In this document: piece by piece, positions 22,993 through 59,636 of the stretch
Layout of the letters: each line of letters starts with the position of its first letter
How positions within the stretch are numbered: the stretch's first letter is position 1
From: Escherichia phage mio
Length of the DNA stretch: 64,000 nucleotides
Direction: 5' to 3' (one strand)
Sequence record: MN850631.1
The notes under the pieces: model-generated
Told to the model about the DNA's origin: nothing
Database searches by the model: none
The model's input: the letters and a program-made list of their open reading frames with translations, nothing else
Program-made: the position numbers and the translations under genes

Positions 22993-23207
22993 CTGTAGAA
23001 GATAAATTTAAGAACGCAGTTCTTACAGAAGATGGTGAGCTTGAAACATTCATTCTTCGTGTTGATGGTAAGCTATTCCGGTGTCGTTGTGGGTCAAACT
23101 GTTTTCATAAACCAGATAAAAATGATTTAGAGCTTTACGCATGTAATGCTTGCAATACTTGGTATCACTCAGAGGTGAAAAATGACAACACTATACAAAC
23201 AAAATAA
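22989..23207 (+). CDS. hypothetical Cys-rich (zinc-ribbon-like) protein
   Basis: 72 aa with CRCGSNC...CNAC arrangement. Confidence 0.35.
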   Translation: MTVEDKFKNAVLTEDGELETFILRVDGKLFRCRCGSNCFHKPDKNDLELYACNACNTWYHSEVKNDNTIQTK

Positions 23208-24282
23208 AGATGGCTCTTTCAACGTCTGGTCATGTGTTGCTGTAGGTGACAAAGTTATTACAACCTACGGTAAAGAAAATGGCAAGATGATGTTTGAAGA
23301 GTATACAGCAGAACCTAAAAACATCGGTAAAAAGAATGAGCGTAACGCTGAACAGCAAGCTCTCTTTGAAGTTGCTGCTAAGTATAAAAAGCAAGTCGAC
23401 CGTAAGGGTTACGCTTACACAAAAGAGTCTGCACAGAATACTGAGAAGGTAGGTGTACAGCTTGCTCATGATGCTGCAAAGGTTAGCCATGCAAAGTATC
23501 TGAAGTTCCCTGCTGATGCTCAACCAAAACTTGATGGTGTCCGTTGTAGAATTTCAAGAGATGCTGATTCAGTCAGTTTCACAGCTTATTCTCGTGAGAA
23601 TACTGTTTACAACGTTCCAACAGAACTAATCCCAGATTTGCTTTTGTTGCTTAAATTACATCCACAAGTTGAAGACTTTGACGGAGAGATTTATGCTCAT
23701 GGTTGGGACTTAGAAGATATTGTATCTATGATTAAGAATGCTGACAATCCAGACCGTCACCTTCTTAAATTCTACTGGTATGATATCTGTGACAATTCAA
23801 AATCTTGGCCTGAGCGTCGTGAAGTTATTGATAACTCACCTATTGTCGAGCTTGGTGATACCTGTAGGGTGGTTCCTGTACAGACTATCCGTGTTAACTC
23901 TTGGGGAGAGTTTGATGAAGCTCATGATAAGTGGGTTGAAGCTAAGTTTGAAGGTGCAATGTACCGCTCAATCTCTGAAGAATCTTTCTACGAGTGTGGT
24001 CACCGTTCATACTTCTTGATTAAGCACAAGAAGATGCACACTGAAGAGTTTAAAGTAACTGGTGTAAAGACTGATAAACGTGGTCATGGTAAGTTCGTCG
24101 TAGAGACTCTTCCTAACGTCTTTGTAGATGTCTCATGGAAGACTACTCATGAGAAGAAACAGTATCTTGCTGAACACCCTGAAGAGTTTATCGGTAAACC
24201 TTTAACGGTTCAGTTCCAGAAGATGACTCGCAAGGGGTCTTTACAGTTCCCTGTCGGGCTAGTTATTAGGGATTATGAGTAA
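23182..24282 (+). CDS. ATP-dependent DNA ligase
   Basis: 366 aa; nucleotidyltransferase motif I KLDGVR (adenylylated lysine). Confidence 0.7.
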   Translation: MTTLYKQNKDGSFNVWSCVAVGDKVITTYGKENGKMMFEEYTAEPKNIGKKNERNAEQQALFEVAAKYKKQVDRKGYAYTKESAQNTEKVGVQLAHDAAKVSHAKYLKFPADAQPKLDGVRCRISRDADSVSFTAYSRENTVYNVPTELIPDLLLLLKLHPQVEDFDGEIYAHGWDLEDIVSMIKNADNPDRHLLKFYWYDICDNSKSWPERREVIDNSPIVELGDTCRVVPVQTIRVNSWGEFDEAHDKWVEAKFEGAMYRSISEESFYECGHRSYFLIKHKKMHTEEFKVTGVKTDKRGHGKFVVETLPNVFVDVSWKTTHEKKQYLAEHPEEFIGKPLTVQFQKMTRKGSLQFPVGLVIRDYE

Positions 24283-24285
24283 ACT

Positions 24286-24432
24286 ATGTTAAGTACAACC
24301 ATTCTGTTTGCATTAGTTGTCTTTGTGTTGTCTTACATCACAAGTAAACTTTTGAACACATCCTTTGCAATGGGTGTTTTGTTCACAATCTTTTGTTTTG
24401 TAACACATATAGCTATCAGGACTTTTATATAA
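24286..24432 (+). CDS. small hydrophobic protein (unlisted short ORF)
   Basis: 48-aa ORF MLSTTILFALVVFVLSYITSKLL... read by eye, below the ORF-track length cutoff. Confidence 0.25.
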   Translation: MLSTTILFALVVFVLSYITSKLLNTSFAMGVLFTIFCFVTHIAIRTFI

Positions 24433-24439
24433 AAAGTTG

Positions 24440-24467
24440 TTGACATAGAAAATTTGGTGAGTATACT
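24440..24467 (+). promoter_or_regulatory. sigma70-like promoter
   Basis: TTGACA (24440-24445), 16-nt spacer, TATACT (24462-24467); no ORF for about 230 nt downstream. Confidence 0.5.
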
Positions 24468-24625
24468 GAGCAGCATAAACCAACGGATACTCACCAGCAT
24501 CACTTAAGAGGCTTCTAAGAGGGTTTTTAAGTAATGTATCGCACAGTAAGGTGATGTGAAGTCTGGCCTTGCATGGTGTAGTCTGGTATGGAAGGATGGC
24601 AGTAGCCTTATAAAAAATCTGCCAA

Positions 24626-24668
24626 ATAAGCTATAAAATCTGTTGACAAGTCAGGTGTTATAGCTTAT
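24626..24668 (+). promoter_or_regulatory. operator-like palindrome flanking a TTGACA box
   Basis: ATAAGCTATAA (24626-24636) and its exact reverse complement TTATAGCTTAT (24658-24668) bracket TTGACA (24643-24648), just upstream of gene 24716. Confidence 0.4.
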
Positions 24669-24715
24669 TTTTATACTCAATGTAATACAAAATTTAATAT
24701 AACTTTGAGGTCATT

Positions 24716-25099
24716 ATGAAAAAGATTTTATTAGCTACTGCAATGGTTATGGCAATGAACTTACCAGTCAATGCAACAGAACTCCCAAATGTGGACTTAT
24801 CAGGTGTTCCAGAAGACACTTGCCAGATTGTGAAAGGTGTTGCTTTATCTAATGGTGAGTTACTTAAACCAATCTCTGAAGAGTCTTTGACAGAGATGAC
24901 TGATAAGGTGACTGACTACCAGTATCGTGTTCTTGCAGAGTATTTCCTACAATCTGCAAATATTAAAGAGAAACACCATGATGATATTGATGTACAGGCT
25001 ATGCTCAATCATCGTATCCAGTTTAAAGAAGATTTGATGCAAAAAGCTATGTATGGTGTTGAGTATTTCTTAGAAAACAGAAGCTGCACAGGTATTTGA
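24716..25099 (+). CDS. secreted/periplasmic hypothetical protein
   Basis: 127 aa; N-terminal signal peptide MKKILLATAMVMAMNLPVNA. Confidence 0.45.
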   Translation: MKKILLATAMVMAMNLPVNATELPNVDLSGVPEDTCQIVKGVALSNGELLKPISEESLTEMTDKVTDYQYRVLAEYFLQSANIKEKHHDDIDVQAMLNHRIQFKEDLMQKAMYGVEYFLENRSCTGI

Positions 25100-25100
25100 T

Positions 25101-25313
25101 ATGGCTCTTAAAAAGTTACATCCCAGAAGCGGTTATGGTAAGATAATTGACGATACAGACGGCTTTACAGTCTTTACAGTTATCTGTCAAGATGATTCAC
25201 AGATTGAAAAGGCTCTTGATGATTATCTTAATGATGAACGTGAAAAGGTTAGAGCTACAAACATAGACTCATTGATTGATACTCCACGCAAACGGAAGAA
25301 GAAAGATGAATGA
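25101..25313 (+). CDS. hypothetical protein
   Basis: 70-aa ORF. Confidence 0.35.
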   Translation: MALKKLHPRSGYGKIIDDTDGFTVFTVICQDDSQIEKALDDYLNDEREKVRATNIDSLIDTPRKRKKKDE

Positions 25314-25605
25314 GGTTTTTGACCCTTATGCTCCACAAGATGATTGGGAGGCTGACAGAGAGGCTGAAATGGAGAGTTATATTTGTCCAATGGATGTAGA
25401 CGAAATGAGAGACTTCGTTTCACATCGTTTTAAGAGAGAGATTAAAACCAGAGGTCTTTCTCAAGAACAAGTTGCTAAAATTTGTGGTATCTCTCAGGCT
25501 CGTGTATCTAACATAATCCACCTCACTGGTAATGTCTCTCTTGAGTATATGTTGGAAGTATGCGAAAAATTTGGTGTTAATTTTAATTTAAGGCTGGCAG
25601 ATTAA
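25306..25605 (+). CDS. helix-turn-helix DNA-binding protein
   Basis: ORF 25276..25605 trimmed to ATG 25306; HTH-like LSQEQVAKICGISQARVSNIIHL. Confidence 0.45.
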   Translation: MNEVFDPYAPQDDWEADREAEMESYICPMDVDEMRDFVSHRFKREIKTRGLSQEQVAKICGISQARVSNIIHLTGNVSLEYMLEVCEKFGVNFNLRLAD

Positions 25606-25606
25606 T

Positions 25607-25966
25607 ATGAAACGTGAAAACATTATCCACTCTGAAAACTTTGCATTAGGCTTTTATGGTGTACCTACTCACCTTGAAAAGTATTATGGTGTGAAGATTC
25701 TTTCCAATCTCATTATGGCTTACAAAGATGGTAAGATTAAGCATACTGAGAAGAAACGTGTCATGGGCTATATGGCTGTAGGCTCAGCAATCTCGAACAT
25801 CAAGCTGGAAACAACTAGTAGCCAGAGTGTGAAAGACCACTTCATCAAAGAGCTTTACCATAACCTTGATGGTGTAGATGTTCAGGCTGTTTGGTTGGAT
25901 GTTGATGGTCACAACTACACAAGCTTTGTTTTCAAAAACGATGACATTAAGTGCTTGTTCCCATAA
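25607..25966 (+). CDS. hypothetical protein
   Basis: 119-aa ORF. Confidence 0.4.
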   Translation: MKRENIIHSENFALGFYGVPTHLEKYYGVKILSNLIMAYKDGKIKHTEKKRVMGYMAVGSAISNIKLETTSSQSVKDHFIKELYHNLDGVDVQAVWLDVDGHNYTSFVFKNDDIKCLFP

Positions 25967-25979
25967 TAGGTGATTAACT

Positions 25980-26495
25980 ATGATTGATGTCTACTTACAA
26001 GATGCTCATGCAGATTTCCTTAAAGAGATGCTTAAAAAGTTTATGGCTTCACAGTATGAAAATGAAGCATCTTTTAAAATAGTTACGTGTGGTGATGAAG
26101 CTGGTTTTGTTGAGATTGAGCATGAAGGTACTGGAAAAACTGTTTGTAAGTTACCTGATAGTATGTTCTCTAAAACGTTCTTAACAAAGACTAGTATAAA
26201 TGTTAAGCTTGTACCACAGATTGAAACATACTCTGGTACAGATTACCCTAAAGGTTTCAAGTCACTGATGAAGTACTTCTTAGATGACTTTGTGAGTAAT
26301 CTTCTGAGGGAGGTAAAAGAAAGTCGTACAGTGTTAACTGTAGAGAACATGGGAGGAACTATCAGGGTCACTTCTGACTGTTTTGTTATGAGCCTCTTCG
26401 ACTTCGTTCCTAAGAACTTTGATGGTATTCTGGATGAAGAAGATGACTGTGTAGACTTTATATTGGTTCTTGAGCCAGTTTTTGAGGTTAAATAA
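25980..26495 (+). CDS. hypothetical protein
   Basis: 171-aa ORF. Confidence 0.4.
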   Translation: MIDVYLQDAHADFLKEMLKKFMASQYENEASFKIVTCGDEAGFVEIEHEGTGKTVCKLPDSMFSKTFLTKTSINVKLVPQIETYSGTDYPKGFKSLMKYFLDDFVSNLLREVKESRTVLTVENMGGTIRVTSDCFVMSLFDFVPKNFDGILDEEDDCVDFILVLEPVFEVK

Positions 26496-26756
26496 ATGAA
26501 AATTGAACACTGCTATGAGTCTGATGGAACACCTATCCGTTGTCCACATTGTGGGTGTACAGACTTACAAGGTGAGGTAAGTGAAATAGTCAACGGTCAT
26601 ATTGCTGAAGAAAGTACCCGATGCACAGGGTGTAATGAAATTATCGCTTTCTGGGCTTATGGTTCATACCAACCCTCTCCACATTTTATCTACCATCGTA
26701 GTAAAGTTGTGAAGAGTGTCATCAACTGGTTCATTAAGAAAGGGTTTACAAAATGA
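26496..26756 (+). CDS. hypothetical zinc-ribbon protein
   Basis: 86 aa; CPHCGC ... CTGC. Confidence 0.4.
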   Translation: MKIEHCYESDGTPIRCPHCGCTDLQGEVSEIVNGHIAEESTRCTGCNEIIAFWAYGSYQPSPHFIYHRSKVVKSVINWFIKKGFTK

Positions 26757-27298
26757 TTAAGCTAATATTTGCAAGTGGTGAAAATGGTGAATTTGGTACA
26801 CCGACTGGTATGCCGTGGCCTCGACATAAACAGGACATGCAAGAGTTTAAGAGACTCACTAAAGATAACTTAGTAGTAATGGGTAATGAGACTTTTAAGA
26901 CTCTGGGGAGTAAACCTTTACCAGAACGTGCAAACCTAATCTTAACAAATTCTGTACCATATTTAGGTATAGACTTTGGCAAAGATGATGTAATGTATGC
27001 TAAGGCCAGTAAAGAATCCTTTGGAGCATTTTTGAAATATCTTGATAGCTCTATTGATGAAGATGTCTTTGTAATTGGTGGTGCAGGTGTTCTTGTCAAT
27101 GCTTTGCCGTATGCTGGTGTAGTTTTCCATACAGTTTTCCATAAAGTTACTGAAGAGGCCACTGTGCATTTACCTTTTGAAAACTTCTTCGATAAACTGT
27201 ATGATAGCCGTGTATTTGCAAAGGTGCAGTCAAGACCCTCCGATGATGGTAAAGCAACCTTTGAGATTTATGTTCCACAAGTAAAAGGACACTTTTGA
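26753..27298 (+). CDS. dihydrofolate reductase
   Basis: 181 aa; N-terminal MIKLIFASGENGEFGTPTGMPWP (DHFR-type ...G.PW motif); adjacent to thymidylate synthase. Confidence 0.7.
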   Translation: MIKLIFASGENGEFGTPTGMPWPRHKQDMQEFKRLTKDNLVVMGNETFKTLGSKPLPERANLILTNSVPYLGIDFGKDDVMYAKASKESFGAFLKYLDSSIDEDVFVIGGAGVLVNALPYAGVVFHTVFHKVTEEATVHLPFENFFDKLYDSRVFAKVQSRPSDDGKATFEIYVPQVKGHF

Positions 27299-52168: not shown

Positions 52169-52244
52169 TGGAGAATCCGAAGGGACTCGAACCCTTATAA
52201 ACCTGTTTTGCAGACAGGCACATATCCATTTCTGTCACGGATTC
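52169..52244 (-). tRNA. tRNA-Cys (anticodon GCA)
   Basis: 76 nt, hand-folded cloverleaf; acceptor GAATCCG/CGGATTC, anticodon loop CTGCAAA, T-arm GGGTTCGAGTCCC, encoded CCA. Confidence 0.7.
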
Positions 52245-52248
52245 AAAT

Positions 52249-52341
52249 TGGAGGAAGATACCAGACTTGAACTGGTACACCGATTTCTCAGCTACTGGCA
52301 GTTTAGCAAACTGCTCCCTTACCTTTTAGGGTTAATCTTCC
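52249..52341 (-). tRNA. tRNA-Ser (anticodon GCU), type II
   Basis: 93 nt; acceptor GGAAGAT/ATCTTCC, anticodon loop TTGCTAA, long variable arm, encoded CCA. Confidence 0.6.
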
Positions 52342-52342
52342 A

Positions 52343-53077
52343 TTATTTCTGTAATGCGCTCTTCATTTCTGGTGTTGCAATAGTATCAATCACACCAGTT
52401 TTACAAGCATCATCAAACCAGTCTGGTAAGATACCTGCTAAGAACCCATTGATATTCGTTTTAAGGTACTCTGCAATAAGGGCAGCTTCTTCTTCAATCA
52501 TCTGCACAACTTCATCTGCATAAGCTGTAATCTTTGAGATACCTTCATTAATCTTACTAACAGCCTGATTAGCTAAATCAGAAACAGTATCAAGACCCTT
52601 ATCAATAGCGTCTTGTAAGTCACTTAACACACCATTAACACTATCTAGTGTGCTGTTAATCATGTCAATAGCTTTTTGACCATATTCTGTAGCAACACCC
52701 ATAATACCACTGAATGGTGTACAACCAACTTGTTCTCCTGCTGCACCCATAACATTGGAATAACCCTTTGCTACCTGCATACGTGATGAAAACTCATCAA
52801 TAGATTTTTGACCATAGTCTGTTAGGGTCTTAGTAGTTGCTGTAGTGCTTGTCAGACTTGTTGTAAAGCTGTTTAGAAGGACTGTTGTAAGTCCAGCAGC
52901 AACAAGTTTCTCCTGCATTGTAGGGTCTGTTACAGAGCTAATAGAGCTTACAAGTGATGTAGAGGCAGCTACGGTTCCACCGAGAACTGCTGCACCAGTA
53001 ATAAGTGGGTTAGAAAACCCTTTACCGGTTTTTAAGAGATTAAAAATCTCCTTACCTTGTTCTGTCATCTCTTTCAT
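52343..53077 (-). CDS. hypothetical protein embedded in the tRNA array
   Basis: ORF 52343..53140 trimmed to internal ATG 53077 because the upstream part overlaps tRNA-Phe; Thr/Ser/Ala-rich. Confidence 0.35.
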   Translation of the reverse strand: MKEMTEQGKEIFNLLKTGKGFSNPLITGAAVLGGTVAASTSLVSSISSVTDPTMQEKLVAAGLTTVLLNSFTTSLTSTTATTKTLTDYGQKSIDEFSSRMQVAKGYSNVMGAAGEQVGCTPFSGIMGVATEYGQKAIDMINSTLDSVNGVLSDLQDAIDKGLDTVSDLANQAVSKINEGISKITAYADEVVQMIEEEAALIAEYLKTNINGFLAGILPDWFDDACKTGVIDTIATPEMKSALQK

Positions 53078-53093
53078 TAAGCACCTTTGAAAT

Positions 53094-53169
53094 TGGTAGT
53101 CCAGTGGGATTTGAACCCTCTTCTCATGTTTTTCAGACACGCGCTTTAACCATATAAGCTACTTGGACT
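53094..53169 (-). tRNA. tRNA-Phe (anticodon GAA)
   Basis: 76 nt; anticodon stem CGTGT/ACATG, loop CTGAAAA; T-loop GGTTCAAATCC; CCA encoded. Confidence 0.6.
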
Positions 53170-53175
53170 ATAAAT

Positions 53176-53251
53176 TGGGGTGACCTACGGGAGTCGAACC
53201 CGTATAGACCATGTTCACAGCATGGGTCATTGCCATTTATGATAAGGCCAC
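53176..53251 (-). tRNA. tRNA-His (anticodon GUG)
   Basis: 76 nt; anticodon stem CCATG/CATGG, loop CTGTGAA; T-loop GGTTCGACTCC; CCA encoded. Confidence 0.7.
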
Positions 53252-53282
53252 ATTTAAGGACTCTCGTAAGAACCCTTAGAAG

Positions 53283-53358
53283 TGGCAGCGGCATAAGGAT
53301 TTGAACCTTAATAGGACAGCTTCAGAGACTGCTGCATTGCCAGTTATGCTATACCGCT
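53283..53358 (-). tRNA. tRNA-Gln (anticodon CUG)
   Basis: 76 nt; D-stem GCAT/ATGC, anticodon loop CTCTGAA, T-stem TAAGG/CCTTA; CCA encoded. Confidence 0.55.
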
Positions 53359-53363
53359 AAATT

Positions 53364-53434
53364 TGGTACTCCATATCGGATTCGAACCGATACATAACAC
53401 AGATTTTAAGTCTGGCCTCTCTGCCAATTGGAGT
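53364..53434 (-). tRNA. tRNA, anticodon UAA (Leu-type anticodon on a short class-I scaffold)
   Basis: 71 nt; T-arm ATCGG-TTCGAAT-CCGAT, anticodon loop CTTAAAA, no long variable arm, A at discriminator; atypical. Confidence 0.4.
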
Positions 53435-53444
53435 AATGGAGCAT

Positions 53445-53519
53445 TGGCGGGGGATGTTGGAATTGAACCAACTTCTTCGATTTCAAAGACCGAGGTTTTA
53501 ACCTTGTAAACTAATCCCC
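53445..53519 (-). tRNA. tRNA-Gln (anticodon UUG)
   Basis: 75 nt; anticodon stem TCGGT/ATCGA, loop CTTTGAA; T-arm GTTGG-TTCAATT-CCAAC; acceptor has two mismatches. Confidence 0.5.
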
Positions 53520-53528
53520 TTTAAATCT

Positions 53529-54086
53529 TTACTTTCTCAGTGGATGAATAAAGAATGCCAACATAACTCTTTCCCTTGAGAATGCTCTTTCTTCTGGGAC
53601 AACACTTTTTAGTTTCCATCCAACATAAATTCTCCAGTAAAACTGTTTACCAAAGACTTTAATTGATGGGATAAAAGCGAATAATCCCCAAGCATTACTG
53701 TTCCACATTAGGAGATAACCAGTCTGATTATCTTCAGGGTCAGAACTTACGTTGATATTACCTTTCCACTTAGTAACATCTTTTACATCTCTTCCTAACA
53801 CATGGTAAGAGAAGTTATAAGCTTTGTTTCTCCAGAGCCATCCAACTCTCTGCAAATAGACACCCAGCTTACCAATCTTTCTAATCTTAGCCCATCTTTT
53901 AACGTGGCCTTCGTCACCATCAATCGGGTTGTCGTAGGTTTCCATCCATCTGAATCCAAAAGGTAGGTGTCCTTTCTTCTCACTGTAGAATGGAACTACG
54001 AAAGGTGCTAAGATGACTGCTAGGGTTGCTGCAAATGGCTCTAGTAAAGCTAGGAAAATCCATGAAGCATACTTCAAATATCTCAT
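53529..54086 (-). CDS. hypothetical membrane protein embedded in the tRNA array
   Basis: 185 aa; N-terminal hydrophobic segment WIFLALLEPFAATLAVILAPFVVPF, Trp/Lys/Arg-rich remainder. Confidence 0.35.
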   Translation of the reverse strand: MRYLKYASWIFLALLEPFAATLAVILAPFVVPFYSEKKGHLPFGFRWMETYDNPIDGDEGHVKRWAKIRKIGKLGVYLQRVGWLWRNKAYNFSYHVLGRDVKDVTKWKGNINVSSDPEDNQTGYLLMWNSNAWGLFAFIPSIKVFGKQFYWRIYVGWKLKSVVPEERAFSRERVMLAFFIHPLRK

Positions 54087-54105
54087 CTAAATAGCCTCTT
54101 AAAAT

Positions 54106-54183
54106 TGGTGTTCCAAGACGGATTCGAACCGTCACTAATACAAGGTTTGAGCTTGCATCCTCTGCCAATTGGGATACTGGAAC
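54106..54183 (-). tRNA. tRNA, anticodon CAA (Leu-type anticodon on class-I scaffold)
   Basis: 78 nt; T-arm GACGG-TTCGAAT-CCGTC, anticodon loop CTCAAAC with extended stem; short variable region; atypical. Confidence 0.4.
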
Positions 54184-54184
54184 A

Positions 54185-54259
54185 TGGTACTCACTAAAGG
54201 ACTTGAACCTTTTTCTTCATCTTGTAAGGGTGATGTTTTACCATATAAACTAAGCGAGT
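54185..54259 (-). tRNA. tRNA-Val (anticodon UAC)
   Basis: 75 nt; D-stem GTTT/AAAC, anticodon loop CTTACAA, T-arm AAAGG-TTCAAGT-CCTTT; CCA encoded. Confidence 0.65.
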
Positions 54260-54354
54260 GTGAAAGAGGTCTGAAGTTGTGCCGCTAACTCAACTCCGTG
54301 GAATTTGTTACGGTCTTCAGTTGACACAAGCGGTCTTTCACTTGACCTCTGAAT

Positions 54355-54431
54355 TGGTGCTGCTCACAGGACTCGAACCTGCATTTCCATCCTTACAAGG
54401 GATGTGTAATAGCCAATTATACGAAAGCAGC
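54355..54431 (-). tRNA. tRNA-Thr (anticodon UGU)
   Basis: 77 nt; anticodon stem CATCC/GGATG, loop CTTGTAA; T-loop GGTTCGAGTCC; CCA encoded. Confidence 0.65.
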
Positions 54432-54438
54432 ATTAATT

Positions 54439-54513
54439 TGGAGCATCCAGAGGGAATCGAACCCTCAACCTCAGTTTGGAAGACTGTAATTTTCCCGTTT
54501 AAACTATGGATGC
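54439..54513 (-). tRNA. tRNA-Gly (anticodon UCC)
   Basis: 75 nt; anticodon stem CAGT/ACTG, loop CTTCCAA; T-arm GAGGG-TTCGATT-CCCTC; CCA encoded. Confidence 0.65.
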
Positions 54514-54519
54514 ACTAAT

Positions 54520-54595
54520 TGGTGGAGAAGCAGGGAATTGAACCCTGTACTTAAGTTTGCAAAACTTATGTTTTAACCATGTAAACTACATCCCC
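54520..54595 (-). tRNA. tRNA-Ala (anticodon UGC)
   Basis: 76 nt; anticodon loop TTTGCAA; G3-U70 wobble in acceptor stem (classic Ala identity element); CCA encoded. Confidence 0.65.
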
Positions 54596-54601
54596 GATAT
54601 C

Positions 54602-54677
54602 TGGTACAGGTGGAGGGAATTGAACCCATCGTCTTACTGATTAAGAGTCAGCCGCATAACCATTTTGCTACACCTGC
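54602..54677 (-). tRNA. tRNA-Lys (anticodon CUU)
   Basis: 76 nt; anticodon loop CTCTTAA; near-duplicate scaffold of the UUU Lys tRNA at 56281-56356; CCA encoded. Confidence 0.55.
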
Positions 54678-54684
54678 ATTAATT

Positions 54685-54762
54685 TGGTAGGAGACAAGGG
54701 ATTCGAACCCTCAAACATCTCGTTCTAAGCGAGATAGGTTTACCAATTACCATCAATCTCCC
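54685..54762 (-). tRNA. tRNA, anticodon UAG (Leu-type anticodon on class-I scaffold)
   Basis: 78 nt; anticodon stem TCTCG/CGAGA, loop CTTAGAA; T-loop GGTTCGAATCC; atypical D region. Confidence 0.4.
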
Positions 54763-54843
54763 ATTAAATCTTTTTAGAGAACTTCTAAGAACCTAAGCAA
54801 CAAGGTTCCACAACAAGCTGTAATAACCTTAGAAGCCCTCTAA

Positions 54844-54864
54844 AAAGACCTAAAAAAGGTCTTT
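54844..54864 (-). terminator. terminator-like hairpin inside the tRNA array
   Basis: AAGACC-(T)6A-GGTCTT hairpin; U-run follows on the minus strand; weak. Confidence 0.3.
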
Positions 54865-55018
54865 GCATAGTCTTGTTTAATCCGGTGACTAGAACCTTTG
54901 GAGAGCTTGATATTATCTCTTCTCCGTGACACCTACTAGGTGCTTTATTAGTGTGTACGACAACACACGAGGGATACCAAAGCAACATCCTAATGAAGCT
55001 TGGCTTTAAATCTTATTA

Positions 55019-55108
55019 GGCGGTAAGTAAAGGAGTCGAACCCTCACCGTATCTCTACAGTGGCAACAGTTTTCAAGACTGTTTGGCTGCCATTAGCCGC
55101 TACCTACC
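55019..55108 (-). tRNA. tRNA-Ser (anticodon UGA), type II
   Basis: About 88 nt; anticodon stem ACAGT/ACTGT, loop CTTGAAA; long variable arm; 3' CCA not encoded (CCT). Confidence 0.55.
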
Positions 55109-55121
55109 CCTAATAAGACTT

Positions 55122-55204
55122 TGGCATGGGACGGAGGAGTTGAACCCCTTTGAAACGGTTTTGGAGGCCGTTGCTCATGCCTTAGAGTCTTAACATCGTC
55201 CCAC
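55122..55204 (-). tRNA. tRNA-Trp-like (anticodon CCA), atypical 83 nt
   Basis: Acceptor GTGGGAC/GTCCCAT, anticodon loop CTCCAAA, T-loop GGGTTCAACTCC; enlarged D region. Confidence 0.4.
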
Positions 55205-55341
55205 ACTATAATTCGAAGCTTACCGTATTATCTCAACACTGTAAAGCCCCTTCTCAGATTATTTACATGTTCTGGAAAACATGAGATACAGACCACCTCC
55301 CTACAGGAAGACCCGCTTAGGTCGTCTAAGTAATCTGCTAA

Positions 55342-55689
55342 CTAATACTTTGCATGTCTTACCCTATGGCAATTTGAACATAGCAAAACACATTTGTCAA
55401 GTTCATCTTTTAGCTCTTGAGAGAACTTAAGGCTTTTCCTATGACCAATGTTAAAATCTTTATCTGAAGGATTCAAATGATGGAAGTCATACACTGCTGG
55501 ATGATACTTTTTACCACAATCATGACAAACCCCACCTTTGTACTCAATAGCTGAGAGTTTAAGTGCTCTTTGTCTTTCTATGGTTTGCTCATTAACACAC
55601 TTTTTACAGTATGAATGAGTTCTTCTACCATCTTTCATGTAGAAATCATTTTCATCCTTGCTAAGTTTGCACCTAATACAAGTTTTCAT
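55342..55689 (-). CDS. HNH homing endonuclease
   Basis: ORF 55342..55740 trimmed to ATG 55689 (upstream part overlaps a tRNA); CxxC ... HHLNP ... CSNCHRVRH HNH/zinc motif. Confidence 0.6.
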   Translation of the reverse strand: MKTCIRCKLSKDENDFYMKDGRRTHSYCKKCVNEQTIERQRALKLSAIEYKGGVCHDCGKKYHPAVYDFHHLNPSDKDFNIGHRKSLKFSQELKDELDKCVLLCSNCHRVRHAKY

Positions 55690-55703
55690 GATTTCTCCAA
55701 AAT

Positions 55704-55785
55704 TGGTCGAGGCGGCAGGACTCGAACCCGCATACTCCACTTACTCGGTTAACGGCGGTTTAGAAGACCGCTGAGATACGCCCCG
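55704..55785 (-). tRNA. tRNA-Arg-like (anticodon-type loop CTTCTAA = UCU), structurally anomalous
   Basis: 82 nt; T-arm GCGGG-TTCGAGT-CCTGC and acceptor CGGGGCG/CGCCTCG, but the UCU hairpin sits where the D-arm should be, followed by 23 unassigned nt. Confidence 0.35.
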
Positions 55786-56078
55786 TAATTATCTTTAAAG
55801 ACTCTCTTAGAAAGCCCTTAAAGATGCCCACCTTATTAATCATACCGTGGGCTAGTACGCCAAATTCTTTGATGAGGGATTGGAAGACCTCACTGGTGTT
55901 TAGCCTATCAAGCTACTGCCAGAAAAACATTGTCGTTTGCATTTATTTTAAATTTGCAAAATAGACGCTACGCAACGAAAACTATTCAGAATATGTACAA
56001 CAAATTTCCCCACATTGTGTTACGTCTAACGCTCATGTATTGGTGTTTGAATTATACATATTATGAAGTATTTTAGTT

Positions 56079-56107
56079 ACTATAAAGTGGTCACATCTCA
56101 ATGTCAA
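56079..56107 (-). promoter_or_regulatory. sigma70-like promoter driving minus-strand transcription into the tRNA array
   Basis: Minus-strand TTGACA (rc of 56102-56107), 17-nt spacer, TATAGT (rc of 56079-56084). Confidence 0.5.
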
Positions 56108-56122
56108 CAACTTTATTGAAAT

Positions 56123-56198
56123 TGGTACTGGTAGGTGGAATCGAACCACCGATATTCCCTTATCAGGGGAGTGTTATAACCTTCTTAACTATACCAGC
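56123..56198 (-). tRNA. tRNA-Ile (anticodon GAU)
   Basis: 76 nt; anticodon loop CTGATAA, T-arm GGTGG-TTCGATT-CCACC; CCA encoded. Confidence 0.65.
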
Positions 56199-56199
56199 T

Positions 56200-56276
56200 T
56201 GGAGGTTCAGATGGGAATCGAACCCACATTCATAGGGCTTATGAAACCCCTGCATTACCTTATCTGCGACTGAACC
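56200..56276 (-). tRNA. tRNA-Met (anticodon CAU; three G-C pairs in anticodon stem, initiator-like)
   Basis: 77 nt; anticodon stem GGGGT/GCCCT with loop TTCATAA; T-loop GGGTTCGATTCCC; CCA encoded. Confidence 0.55.
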
Positions 56277-56280
56277 ATAT

Positions 56281-56356
56281 TGGTAGAAGTGGAGGGATTC
56301 GAACCCATCGCCTGTCAGATTAAAAGTCTGCCGCATCACCATTCTGCTACACTTCC
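56281..56356 (-). tRNA. tRNA-Lys (anticodon UUU)
   Basis: 76 nt; anticodon loop CTTTTAA; scaffold nearly identical to the CUU Lys tRNA at 54602-54677. Confidence 0.6.
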
Positions 56357-56361
56357 ATTAA

Positions 56362-56504
56362 ATTATCTTTGTAGATAAGCTACCCAGACTTGCTTAAGGT
56401 CTGTAGCGATGTGCATTGTTGGGTTTAAATCTAGAATTTACCCTTTCACCCTTTGTGGTCGCATACTCACAGGTAAGCTTAATAACTTATCTACAAAGAT
56501 AATT
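56362..56504 (-). ncRNA. structured element with 19-bp perfect terminal inverted repeat (candidate ncRNA or mobile-element remnant)
   Basis: AATTATCTTTGTAGATAAG (56362-56380) and its exact reverse complement CTTATCTACAAAGATAATT (56486-56504) enclose about 105 nt with internal hairpins; no T-loop; strand unknown. Confidence 0.35.
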
Positions 56505-56505
56505 A

Positions 56506-56636
56506 CCAGACCGTTGTTTATCATCTTAAGTGCTACCATTACACCAACTCGACCTCTGCCGAGTGAAGGAATCGAACCTTCGCCTTTTCTTTACCGAGAA
56601 ATAGATTGTTTAAGCTTTGCTGTAAACGGTCTTCTG
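56506..56636 (-). ncRNA. circularly permuted tRNA-like element (candidate Y-RNA-like ncRNA or permuted tRNA gene)
   Basis: In minus-strand sense: variable-arm hairpin TTTCT-CGGTA-AGAAA, T-arm GAAGG-TTCGATT-CCTTC, acceptor-like hairpin ACTCGGC-AGAG-GTCGAGT, D-arm-like GTG-TAATGGTAG-CAC, then TTAAGAT pairing back to ATCT and an 8-bp outer helix AGACCGTT/AACGGTCT. Confidence 0.45.
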
Positions 56637-56810
56637 TAAATTTGTTGAGCCAGACCAAGTTTTAAATTTTTCAAAATTAAATTGGCTTGAAATTTTAAGT
56701 AACTTGCTGTATTTGGTCTTCTGCTCCTTTAAAGAATACTCGTAAGAACTCTTTAAGGGAGGGGCTAAATAGCCCTCTCAAAACATCATTTTGAAATACT
56801 TATTATAATT

Positions 56811-56888
56811 TGGCGGTTACGAAGGGACTCGAACCCTCATCATCTCCCGTGACAGGGGAGTATTTTAACCATATTAAACTACATAACC
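56811..56888 (-). tRNA. tRNA-Asp (anticodon GUC)
   Basis: 78 nt; anticodon stem CTCCC/GGGAG, loop CTGTCAC; T-loop GGGTTCGAGTCCC; CCA encoded. Confidence 0.65.
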
Positions 56889-56894
56889 TTCATT

Positions 56895-56982
56895 TGGTGT
56901 GCCGTGTAGGAGTCGAACCTACCGAGTCTCAATGACAAGGGATTTACAGTCCCCACCGCTACCATCTACGGGATAACGACAC
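56895..56982 (-). tRNA. tRNA-Tyr (anticodon GUA), type II
   Basis: 88 nt; anticodon loop CTGTAAA, long variable arm, T-arm GTAGG-TTCGACT-CCTAC; CCA encoded. Confidence 0.6.
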
Positions 56983-56991
56983 ATTTAAATT

Positions 56992-57068
56992 TGGCGGTTA
57001 GTCAGGGATTCGAACCCTGTGCCATTCGCTTAACAGGCGACCGCACATACCTTATGTGCTTCCTAACC
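56992..57068 (-). tRNA. tRNA-Asn (anticodon GUU)
   Basis: 77 nt; D-stem GCAC/GTGC, anticodon loop CTGTTAA, T-loop GGGTTCGAATCCC; CCA encoded. Confidence 0.65.
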
Positions 57069-57145
57069 TTAATACATTGCCAGACCGTGTTTTTTCTTTT
57101 ATCCGCAAAAAGTAGTTTGTTGCTGCATACAGTCTTCTGCAAAAT

Positions 57146-57222
57146 TGGAGGCGGGTGCAGGAGTCGAACCTGCCGATACCATGCTAATGAGACATGTGAG
57201 ACGCCCTTTCTCTATACCCGCA
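57146..57222 (-). tRNA. tRNA with CAU anticodon (Met or Ile2-type)
   Basis: 77 nt; anticodon stem CATGT/GCATG, loop CTCATTA; 1:72 mismatch in acceptor; T-arm GCAGG-TTCGACT-CCTGC. Confidence 0.5.
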
Positions 57223-57313
57223 ATTCTTAATGACCAGACCAAATCTCTTCTTTGTCCGATTTACCTTCAGATGAATAAGATTAAGTTTGCTGTAATTGGT
57301 CTTCTGTCAAAAC

Positions 57314-57391
57314 TGGCGTTCCAGAAGGGATTTGAACCCTCAGATATCCACTTTGAAAGAGTGGTGACTTTACCATTTTGTCTACTGGAAC
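57314..57391 (-). tRNA. tRNA-Glu (anticodon UUC)
   Basis: 78 nt; anticodon stem CCACT/AGTGG, loop CTTTCAA; T-loop GGGTTCAAATCCC; CCA encoded. Confidence 0.65.
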
Positions 57392-57398
57392 ATTAATT

Positions 57399-57476
57399 TG
57401 GTCTCTGTTGGAGGACTTGAACCTCCGGCCTTACCGCCCCAAACGGAACGCTCTACCAAGCTGAGCTAAACAGAGA
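57399..57476 (-). tRNA. tRNA-Pro (anticodon UGG)
   Basis: About 78 nt; canonical D-arm AGCTCAGCTTGGTAGAGC, anticodon loop TTTGGGG, T-arm GGAGG-TTCAAGT-CCTCC; CCA encoded. Confidence 0.7.
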
Positions 57477-59509: not shown

Positions 59510-59636
59510 TGGTATGCCTCTTATAAGACCTCTTAAAAGGCTTTTAAGATAAAAGATAGATATCCAGAAAGATATCTGTTTAAATAGCCTTTTTAGAGGA
59601 ACCTTTTAAGTTATCTTCTAAGTATTTATAAGCCTA

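Follow-up and report, generated by a model that had tools for sequence, protein, structure and literature searches.

Architecture of the interval between the ligase and signal-peptide genes

We analyzed a 64,000-nucleotide (nt) stretch of Escherichia phage mio DNA (record MN850631.1; the window, numbered from its first letter), focusing on the interval between a DNA ligase gene and a signal-peptide gene, where a guide RNA (vrRNA) gene of the recently reported VIPR system probably stands on its own. The 259 phage records that match positions 23000-27000 (80-97% identity) come almost exclusively from Felixounavirus and relatives, and by sequence the window is that of a Felix O1-like myovirus, Felixounavirus. 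The locus comprises the following features (ORF, open reading frame; aa, amino acids; NN, the two variable bases of a repeat; dG, folding free energy; z, deviation from shuffled sequences).

23182-24282: DNA ligase gene
24286-24432: 48-aa membrane ORF directly after the ligase gene, upstream neighbor of the vrRNA region
24440..24467, + strand: promoter P1, TTGACA (24440-24445), 16-nt spacer, TATACT (24462-24467); predicted start near 24474
24455..24496, + strand: perfect 10-bp inverted repeat around P1, TGGTGAGTAT / ATACTCACCA (24455-24464 / 24487-24496), 22-nt spacer
24498..24536, + strand: 5′ hairpin module CACTTAAGAGG...TTTTTAAGTAATG, dG -12.5 kcal/mol, z -3.6
24530..24599, + strand: vrRNA repeat tract, 14 in-register pentamers N-G-Y-N-N
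24535..24584, + strand: guide segment, ten variable units, NN = AT AC AA GA GA CT CT AT GT CT
24597..24639, + strand: invariant 3′ tail, stem S1 (24597-24602 with 24619-24624) and predicted pseudoknot S2 (24603-24611 with 24626-24633)
24626-24636 and 24658-24668: palindrome, an exact 11-bp inverted repeat, ATAAGCTATAA and TTATAGCTTAT
24643..24671, + strand: promoter-like site P2, TTGACA (24643-24648), 17-nt spacer, TATTTT, in the loop and 3′ arm of the palindrome
24624..24675, + strand: palindrome hairpin and U-rich run, dG -17.8 kcal/mol, z -4.3, left arm shared with tail stem S2
24716-25099: signal-peptide gene, ATG at 24716, downstream neighbor of the vrRNA region

The TTGACA-16-TATACT arrangement of P1 and the lack of any credible ORF after it, both pointed out in the initial annotation, are borne out by the sequence; the empty stretch spans ~250 nt, and the sole ORF on the + strand between 24432 and the ATG at 24716 encodes 26 aa from a GTG. 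P1 matches the sigma-70-like consensus at 11/12 positions, ranks top within 20-30 kb, and is among only 7 sites scoring ≥11/12 on both strands of the window. Since the 27 promoter-like sites found in 20-30 kb do not exceed the shuffle mean of 25.4, the consensus match by itself says little, and the real support for P1 comes from conservation. Alignment with ten relatives divided the interval into three zones, i.e., a conserved promoter block that contains the hairpin CACTTAAGAG...TTTTTAAGTG, a hypervariable middle, and a 130-nt 3′ block. The promoter block is kept in all these relatives with 92-97% identity to the window copy, and the TGGTGAGTAT / ATACTCACCA repeat, which spans the P1 -10 box and the first transcribed bases, is conserved as well.

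The middle zone is made up of the pentamers AGTAA TGTAT CGCAC AGTAA GGTGA TGTGA AGTCT GGCCT TGCAT GGTGT AGTCT GGTAT GGAAG GATGG, in which G2 and Y3 are each present in 13/14 units and G1 in 6/14 (3/10 among guide units). This is the sole place in the window with at least 6/10 in-register pentamers carrying GT, and no further copies of the repeat were found elsewhere in it. The + strand folds far better than its shuffles (z = -3.55), whereas the - strand does not (z = -0.77). Searches for a known RNA family gave nothing: in 24200-24900 no Rfam match was obtained at E values up to 10, scans for tRNAs were likewise negative there, and only tRNAs reach the gathering score in the whole window. A hidden small protein was rejected on account of the 26-aa GTG ORF being the only candidate and a period of 5 being incompatible with coding.

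The array is homologous to vrRNA4 of phage SUSP1

VIPR, an RNA-guided DNA-binding system with a gapped code, was reported in 2026 and proposed to predate CRISPR (bioRxiv 10.64898/2026.04.26.720920 and 10.64898/2026.04.26.720927). The system consists of a ~20-kDa RAMP-like protein (Vipr), an accessory protein (Vap), and vrRNAs, each with 9-16 YNNGG (GGY/NN) repeats and an invariant ~40-nt pseudoknot tail; each repeat is bound by one Vipr protomer that sequesters the GGY bases, while the NN pair with double-stranded DNA, skipping every third target base, and binding represses transcription (10.64898/2026.04.26.720920, 10.64898/2026.04.26.720927). In natural targets, the skipped base falls on the codon wobble position (10.64898/2026.04.26.720920). 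The model phage, Escherichia phage SUSP1, carries one vrRNA upstream and three downstream of vipr-vap, and its clade is classed as type II; SUSP1 vrRNAs are ~100-nt transcripts that copurify with Vipr (10.64898/2026.04.26.720920). Frequent internal repeat degeneracy and YNNNG-type variants were also noted (10.64898/2026.04.26.720920).

The SUSP1 locus runs from the ligase gene through a promoter block, vrRNA1, vipr (195 aa), vap (146 aa), and vrRNA2-4 to the signal-peptide gene, and is syntenic with the window. The long loci of relatives such as wV8 have the same two-gene cassette (195 and 146 aa) together with up to four flanking arrays, each with a hairpin module before it and a conserved tail after it; the two wV8 products share 98% and 99% identity with their SUSP1 counterparts. 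The window element corresponds to the SUSP1 promoter block, the same that precedes vrRNA1 and vipr there, and 5′ hairpin fused to a vrRNA4-type array and the 3′ block, palindrome and P2 included. It shares with SUSP1 vrRNA4 the position between ligase and signal-peptide genes, the promoter block, the 5′ hairpin module, an N-G-Y-N-N tract of 13-14 units in the same relaxed form, and an essentially identical 3′ block with tail, palindrome, and P2. By these sequence features, it is unambiguously a homologue of SUSP1 vrRNA4. It differs in that P1 is fused directly to a single vrRNA, with no vipr or vap in cis. The small RNA that had been suggested for this region was thus correctly guessed as to kind, although the pentamer code, its essential feature, had been overlooked.

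The 3′ end conforms to the same family. Positions 24585-24715, which include an invariant ~40-nt tail, share 97-100% identity with the sequence found after the last vrRNA of SUSP1 and of 26 related loci. Paralogous tails carry a compensatory change in S1 (GGCAG/CUGCC here versus GGUAG/CUACC), and S2 covaries among internal tails (AGUCUCA/UGAGACU versus AAUCGGA/UCCGAUU), by analogy with which the S2 pseudoknot stem of the window tail is predicted. The 5′ hairpin module, in two sequence variants, precedes vrRNA arrays in related loci, and in SUSP1 an identical 36-nt copy stands before vrRNA1 and again before vrRNA4. Recombination between these two copies would yield exactly the architecture of the window, which probably arose by such an event with deletion of vrRNA1-vipr-vap-vrRNA2-vrRNA3. 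The module is a likely recombination site for the removal of vipr-vap, and possibly a processing site too. Weak matches to the module (CTTAAGAGGCTTCTAAGAGGGTTTTTAAG; 79-81% identity over 27-29 nt) occur at 55795-55821(-) and 59520-59548(-) of the window, on the strand transcribed in the tRNA region, and may be due to chance.

Other explanations of the repeat had been entertained and were dropped once the array proved orthologous to a characterized vrRNA, namely a binding site for a TRAP-like ring protein, a CsrA or Hfq sponge, an R-loop replication origin or immunoglobulin (Ig)-switch-like recombination hotspot, and a primase recognition array. So was a two-tetrad G-quadruplex, already unlikely because many units carry a single G.

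The guide matches the vipr gene of related phages

To search for targets, the ten variable units were converted to the 1-nt-skip pattern ATNACNAANGANGANCTNCTNATNGTNCT and collections were scanned with it. IMG/VR yielded four matches, all at the same vipr site in Felixounavirus contigs with vipr. The guide matches codons 157-166 (ITKEELLMVL) of vipr in VIPR-carrying relatives at 10/10 units, against a threshold of at least 80% NN match, with NN on codon positions 1 and 2 and the skipped base on the wobble position, as in the rule published for SUSP1. The matched site lies upstream of the G-loop codons; in the structure of Vipr, the G-loop residues D177/W178/R179 are essential and G1 is contacted by H17 and D177 (10.64898/2026.04.26.720927). 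The predicted target of the window guide is

ATCACCAAAGAGGAACTTCTGATGGTTCTT

The flanking constant units do not match the target, as expected if only variable units guide; with all 13 units counted, 21-22/26 bases match vipr. Among 500 shuffles of NN order the best runs were 4-7, versus 10 observed. Skip lengths of 0 and 2 gave background values (5), and the 10 reached with a skip of 3 is solely a match of the array to itself. IMG/VR had no match to three other guides of this length. The single match of ATNACNAANGANGANCTNCTNATNGTNCT in 596 Gb of genomes, in a response-regulator receiver (REC) domain gene, was set aside as chance, and self-targeting was dismissed, the best match of the guide in its own window being 6/10, i.e., background. 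Whereas 18/20 SUSP1-clade guides are reported to target a satellite phage, the predicted target of the window guide is vipr itself.

Guide-only loci are apparently widespread among Felix O1-like phages

Searches with wV8 and SUSP1 Vipr and Vap (tblastn) were negative for the window and for Meda, a relative of the same guide lineage whose genome is complete (84.7 kb). The array does not lie next to vipr and vap, its locus being the syntenic site minus the cassette. Vipr at ≥90% identity was found in 118 Ounavirinae records, at one place per record in all but one (131 places in 130 matching records). We found the guide of the window (lineage A) in 45-46 phage records, that of the type phage Felix O1 among them (NC_005282, 57757-57811), and every lineage-A carrier inspected lacks the cassette. 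There is no annotated feature under the guide in any of the 46 matching records; a conserved intergenic region left bare in them, Felix O1 included, thereby gains an annotation. Copies of the element, a possible mark of a satellite, were absent from 5,426 complete Escherichia coli genomes.

VpaE1 and VpaE1_ev035 carry vipr, and VpaE1_ev78 (L170) has no cassette and has a lineage-A guide of the TT type (see below); should the "ev" records be laboratory-evolved derivatives, replacement of the cassette by the guide-only form would be possible within laboratory time spans. In the lineage-A variant of Escherichia phage GEP101 (L172, ~2560-2660), which has CG at unit 4, the tail is preceded by four additional GGTAA units, which illustrates how the number of repeats can change inside a guide lineage. 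The ligase and signal-peptide genes are separated by 270 nt to 2.2 kb in relatives, and in Shigella phage Sf13 (L169, 843-929) this spacer is just 85 nt, with a P1-like promoter, AAAGTTGTTGACA-N17-TATACT. It holds no vrRNA, VIPR remnant, or palindrome of the kind described here, and the downstream gene for a helix-turn-helix (HTH) protein is kept; this state is either ancestral or a complete loss.

Independent orphan lineages hit vipr, and guide variants mirror vipr alleles

We extended the search to ~85 arrays from 27 loci against ~0.6 Mb of Ounavirinae sequence (both strands counted), in which the typical best run was 5-6 units. The clear exceptions that land in vipr are guides from phages devoid of vipr only. 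Lineage A (the window, Si3, Sl26, SP22, Felix O1, and others) matches codons 157-166, lineage B (EC6) matches codons 13-22 in antisense (9/9 units), and lineage D (LNA1, DE7) matches codons 121-130 (10/10 units), all three in codon phase. Of the ~60 arrays in loci with vipr, none rises above background against this gene.

The NN of 13 lineage-A carriers differ at just three places, each of which mirrors a vipr allele at the same codon:

guide unit 4, AA/CG: vipr codon 159, AAA/CGA (Lys/Arg)
guide unit 7, CT/AT: vipr codon 162, CTT/ATC (Leu/Ile)
guide unit 8, CT/TT: vipr codon 163, CTG/TTG

The TT guide variant matches the wV8/SUSP1 allele at 10/10 units, and the window variant matches the CTG alleles at 10/10. 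In 14 distinct vipr sequences, 6/11 codons varying at positions 1 and 2 fall within the 20 codons of the sites targeted by lineages A and B, a small sample without phylogenetic correction. Such an excess fits escape, because wobble changes cannot evade a guide that skips the wobble base. Together, the guide variants and vipr alleles suggest, at the sequence level, an arms race.

Some guides of vipr-carrying phages gave sub-threshold matches in Felixounavirus genes (L014, 2178-2252; L003, 1401-1470 / L022, 2178-2247). One such match lies in the signal-peptide gene (run of 7, 9/15 units; e.g., Meda 31705) and another in the gene that follows the HTH gene, in an allele specific to EC6 (L004, 3485-3526; run of 7, 8/14 units). 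These may reflect phage-versus-phage targeting in the opposite direction.

A proposed mode of action for the orphan guide

We consider it quite probable that the region is a stand-alone vrRNA gene of the SUSP1 clade without vipr or vap, serving as an orphan anti-VIPR guide that borrows the Vipr of a coinfecting rival. Host RNA polymerase would start at P1 (~24474) early in infection and produce a transcript composed of the 5′ hairpin, the N-G-Y-N-N tract, and the invariant pseudoknot tail. By analogy with SUSP1, ending or processing near the palindrome hairpin would leave a ~105-nt RNA (~24530-24640). Alone, this RNA would have no protein partner, and would act solely when a vipr-carrying phage shares the cell, because its own genome lacks Vipr. 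Upon coinfection by a VIPR-carrying relative, protomers of the rival's Vipr would assemble on it, one per repeat and despite the degenerate first G, and the ten NN would direct the filament to the 30-nt site at codons 157-166 of the rival's vipr, upstream of codons D177/W178/R179. Transcription of vipr, vap, and, by a polar effect, the downstream vrRNAs would be blocked, Vipr would be diverted from the rival's own guides, and the carrier would presumably gain in fitness. The orphan guide may thus turn the competitor's weapon against the competitor.

On balance, we also lean toward the broader view that about half of the sequenced Felix O1-like phages, Felix O1 among them, are guide-only, having discarded the VIPR protein genes and kept one strongly promoted vrRNA, reprogrammed against vipr, that would silence a rival's VIPR locus in mixed infections.

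Several points weigh against these proposals. Canonical GGY is found in just 3/10 guide units, the others being AGT, TGT, CGC, and TGC, and GGY>AGY was among the substitutions tested in the preprint, where perturbed GGY motifs abolished silencing (10.64898/2026.04.26.720920); SUSP1 vrRNA4 is similarly degenerate (5/11 units), and the native guides named in the legend to the reporter test (Fig. S12C) are guides 2 and 3 only (10.64898/2026.04.26.720920). Repression could also be no more than partial, as the repressor would depend on the product of its own target gene. No target was found for orphan lineages C, E, and F, either locally or in IMG/VR. Finally, the window covers 64 of ~86 kb, so that the absence of vipr from the remaining genome is deduced from relatives, and the census comprised ~45 loci of roughly 230 genomes.

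Alternative explanations

The degenerate repeats could also betray decay. The locus would then be the leftover of a VIPR locus after vipr-vap deletion, with P1 driving the downstream operon through a long leader and the vipr match surviving as a fossil: the guide would once have served self-targeting or autoregulation, before the cassette was lost or as the cause of its loss. This would account for the lack of Vipr in cis and for a G1 that is degenerate in 7/10 guide units, GGY>AGY being among the substitutions tested in the preprint, where perturbing the motif abolished silencing; the two identical hairpin copies in SUSP1 make a simple deletion plausible, and Sf13 exemplifies a downstream operon driven directly by a P1-like promoter. 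A fossil would hardly, however, change its NN in 13 carriers solely where vipr alleles change, and to the same dinucleotides, nor would decay lead three independent orphan lineages to three different vipr sites, leave the tail block 97-100% conserved, or concentrate position-1/2 variation of vipr in the targeted sites. The autoregulatory ancestor is not observed either, as no sampled vipr-carrying phage has such a guide. We regard this explanation as unlikely, and keep it at that level because of the degenerate G1 and the GGY perturbation data. The conserved G2-Y3 core, the intact tail, and the strong promoter would equally allow the RNA to bind a rival's Vipr merely as a sponge, like RNA anti-CRISPRs, with DNA targeting being irrelevant, and the degenerate G1 could fit an RNA of this kind, for which full guide competence is dispensable. 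For a sponge, though, there is no need of NN agreeing with vipr in 10/10 units and in codon phase, or of variants that follow the vipr alleles, which renders this option extremely improbable.

The initial annotation had instead proposed a generic small RNA or 5′ leader followed by P2, with the palindrome as an operator for the HTH protein encoded at 25306-25605. Its descriptive elements are sound: the exact 11-bp repeat does bracket the TTGACA box of P2, upstream of the signal-peptide gene, and the product of 25306..25605 is a Cro/C1-type HTH protein (Pfam HTH_3, E=1.8e-9). The arms of the palindrome are invariant in relatives and extend to 19 nt with 89% complementarity (24624-24642 / 24652-24670), and a second inverted repeat embraces P1 likewise. 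Against an operator, the palindrome forms part of the invariant block downstream of the final vrRNA in every VIPR locus examined, those of SUSP1 and Moogle included; its left arm falls within the conserved ~40-nt tail and can pair with the loop of S1, as the second stem of a pseudoknot would. Its half-sites are 32 bp apart center to center, which is atypical for an XRE dimer, and do not recur beyond chance in the window (4 matches at ≤1 mismatch versus 1.9 expected). Sf13 keeps the HTH gene without the palindrome, and a left-arm A>G change in DE7 preserves RNA pairing (G-U) while breaking DNA symmetry. Neither the pentamer code nor the vipr match is explained by this model, which we find very unlikely; the operator assignment is unsupported, even though, from sequence, a dual role of the palindrome as RNA element and operator is conceivable. 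Under the orphan-guide hypothesis, the modeled palindrome hairpin may terminate the primary vrRNA transcript or serve in its processing: the 24624-24670 hairpin is followed by UUUUUAUACU, with an A+U-rich stem at which the terminator scan made no call.

The TGGTGAGTAT / ATACTCACCA repeat around P1 has the same 32-bp center-to-center geometry as the palindrome around P2, and the P1-like promoter of Sf13 is surrounded by a different inverted repeat, AACATAGCAAGT / ACTTGCTATGTT. The combination of a promoter with a hairpin may be a general feature of this phage group.

Relation to other systems

Virus-borne mini-CRISPR arrays and solitary repeat units, as well as RNA anti-CRISPRs, have reportedly been described by Medvedeva et al. 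in 2019 and Camara-Wilpert et al. in 2023. As in the case proposed here, the virus carries only the RNA part and uses an effector from another genome, either to target a competitor or to subvert the effector. The orphan guide would differ in that the effector comes from a competing phage instead of the host, the targeted gene is the effector gene itself, and the code is a gapped GGY/NN one and not a contiguous spacer. Promoter-stem-loop (PeSL) cassettes are said to have been described in T4-type phages by Arbiol, Comeau, and Krisch in 2010. There, too, repeated promoter and hairpin modules flank a variable cassette that recombination can delete or exchange; the parallel explains the gain and loss of vipr-vap only, and not the pentamer code or its target. 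The vrRNAs of the P. fulva clade target other VIPR systems (10.64898/2026.04.26.720920). They are similarly aimed at a competitor's VIPR locus, but are part of loci found through Vipr, and therefore have Vipr in cis, whereas the attacker in the window has none.

The vrRNA as a kind of element is already known from the 2026 preprints. Because the clade was defined there by Vipr BLASTp and targets were sought only in E. coli chromosomes and plasmids (10.64898/2026.04.26.720920), loci without the proteins and targets in phages fall outside that scope. The protein-less state, its frequency in Felix O1-like phages, and the programming against vipr with guide/target co-variation appear to be new relative to the preprint text. 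The locus suggests a further layer, in which guide genes that lack the proteins, apparently frequent in a classical group of phages, target the effector gene of related phages. If so, an RNA-guided system would have been turned on its own effector gene by a genome encoding RNA only. This would constitute a natural anti-VIPR mechanism and a tractable model of guide/target co-evolution with escape codons already visible, and would call for caution with phage cocktails that mix vipr-carrying and guide-only Felix O1-like phages.

Additional observations

A (GGTNN)5GGT scan of IMG/VR revealed similar arrays in contigs of many unrelated viruses (L027-L146), with several heterogeneous GGTNN arrays of 10-19 units, each with a fixed tail (GGTAA GGCTA; GGAAT GGTTT; GGCAG). 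Examples are L050 3396-3843(-), L062 2217-3406(+), L048, L058, L071, L077, and L088. They presumably represent vrRNA arrays of other VIPR types. Vipr, Vap, the signal-peptide protein, and the two small ORFs are not assigned to any Pfam family. Distant Vipr homologues with 32-44% identity occur in Gordonia, Mycobacterium, Pseudomonas, Vibrio, and Listonella phages.

Elsewhere in the window, a weak tRNA-like Rfam match at 55707-55785 was not called by ARAGORN. It falls within 52169-57475, where 24 tRNA genes are clustered on the - strand, as is typical of Felix O1-like phages.

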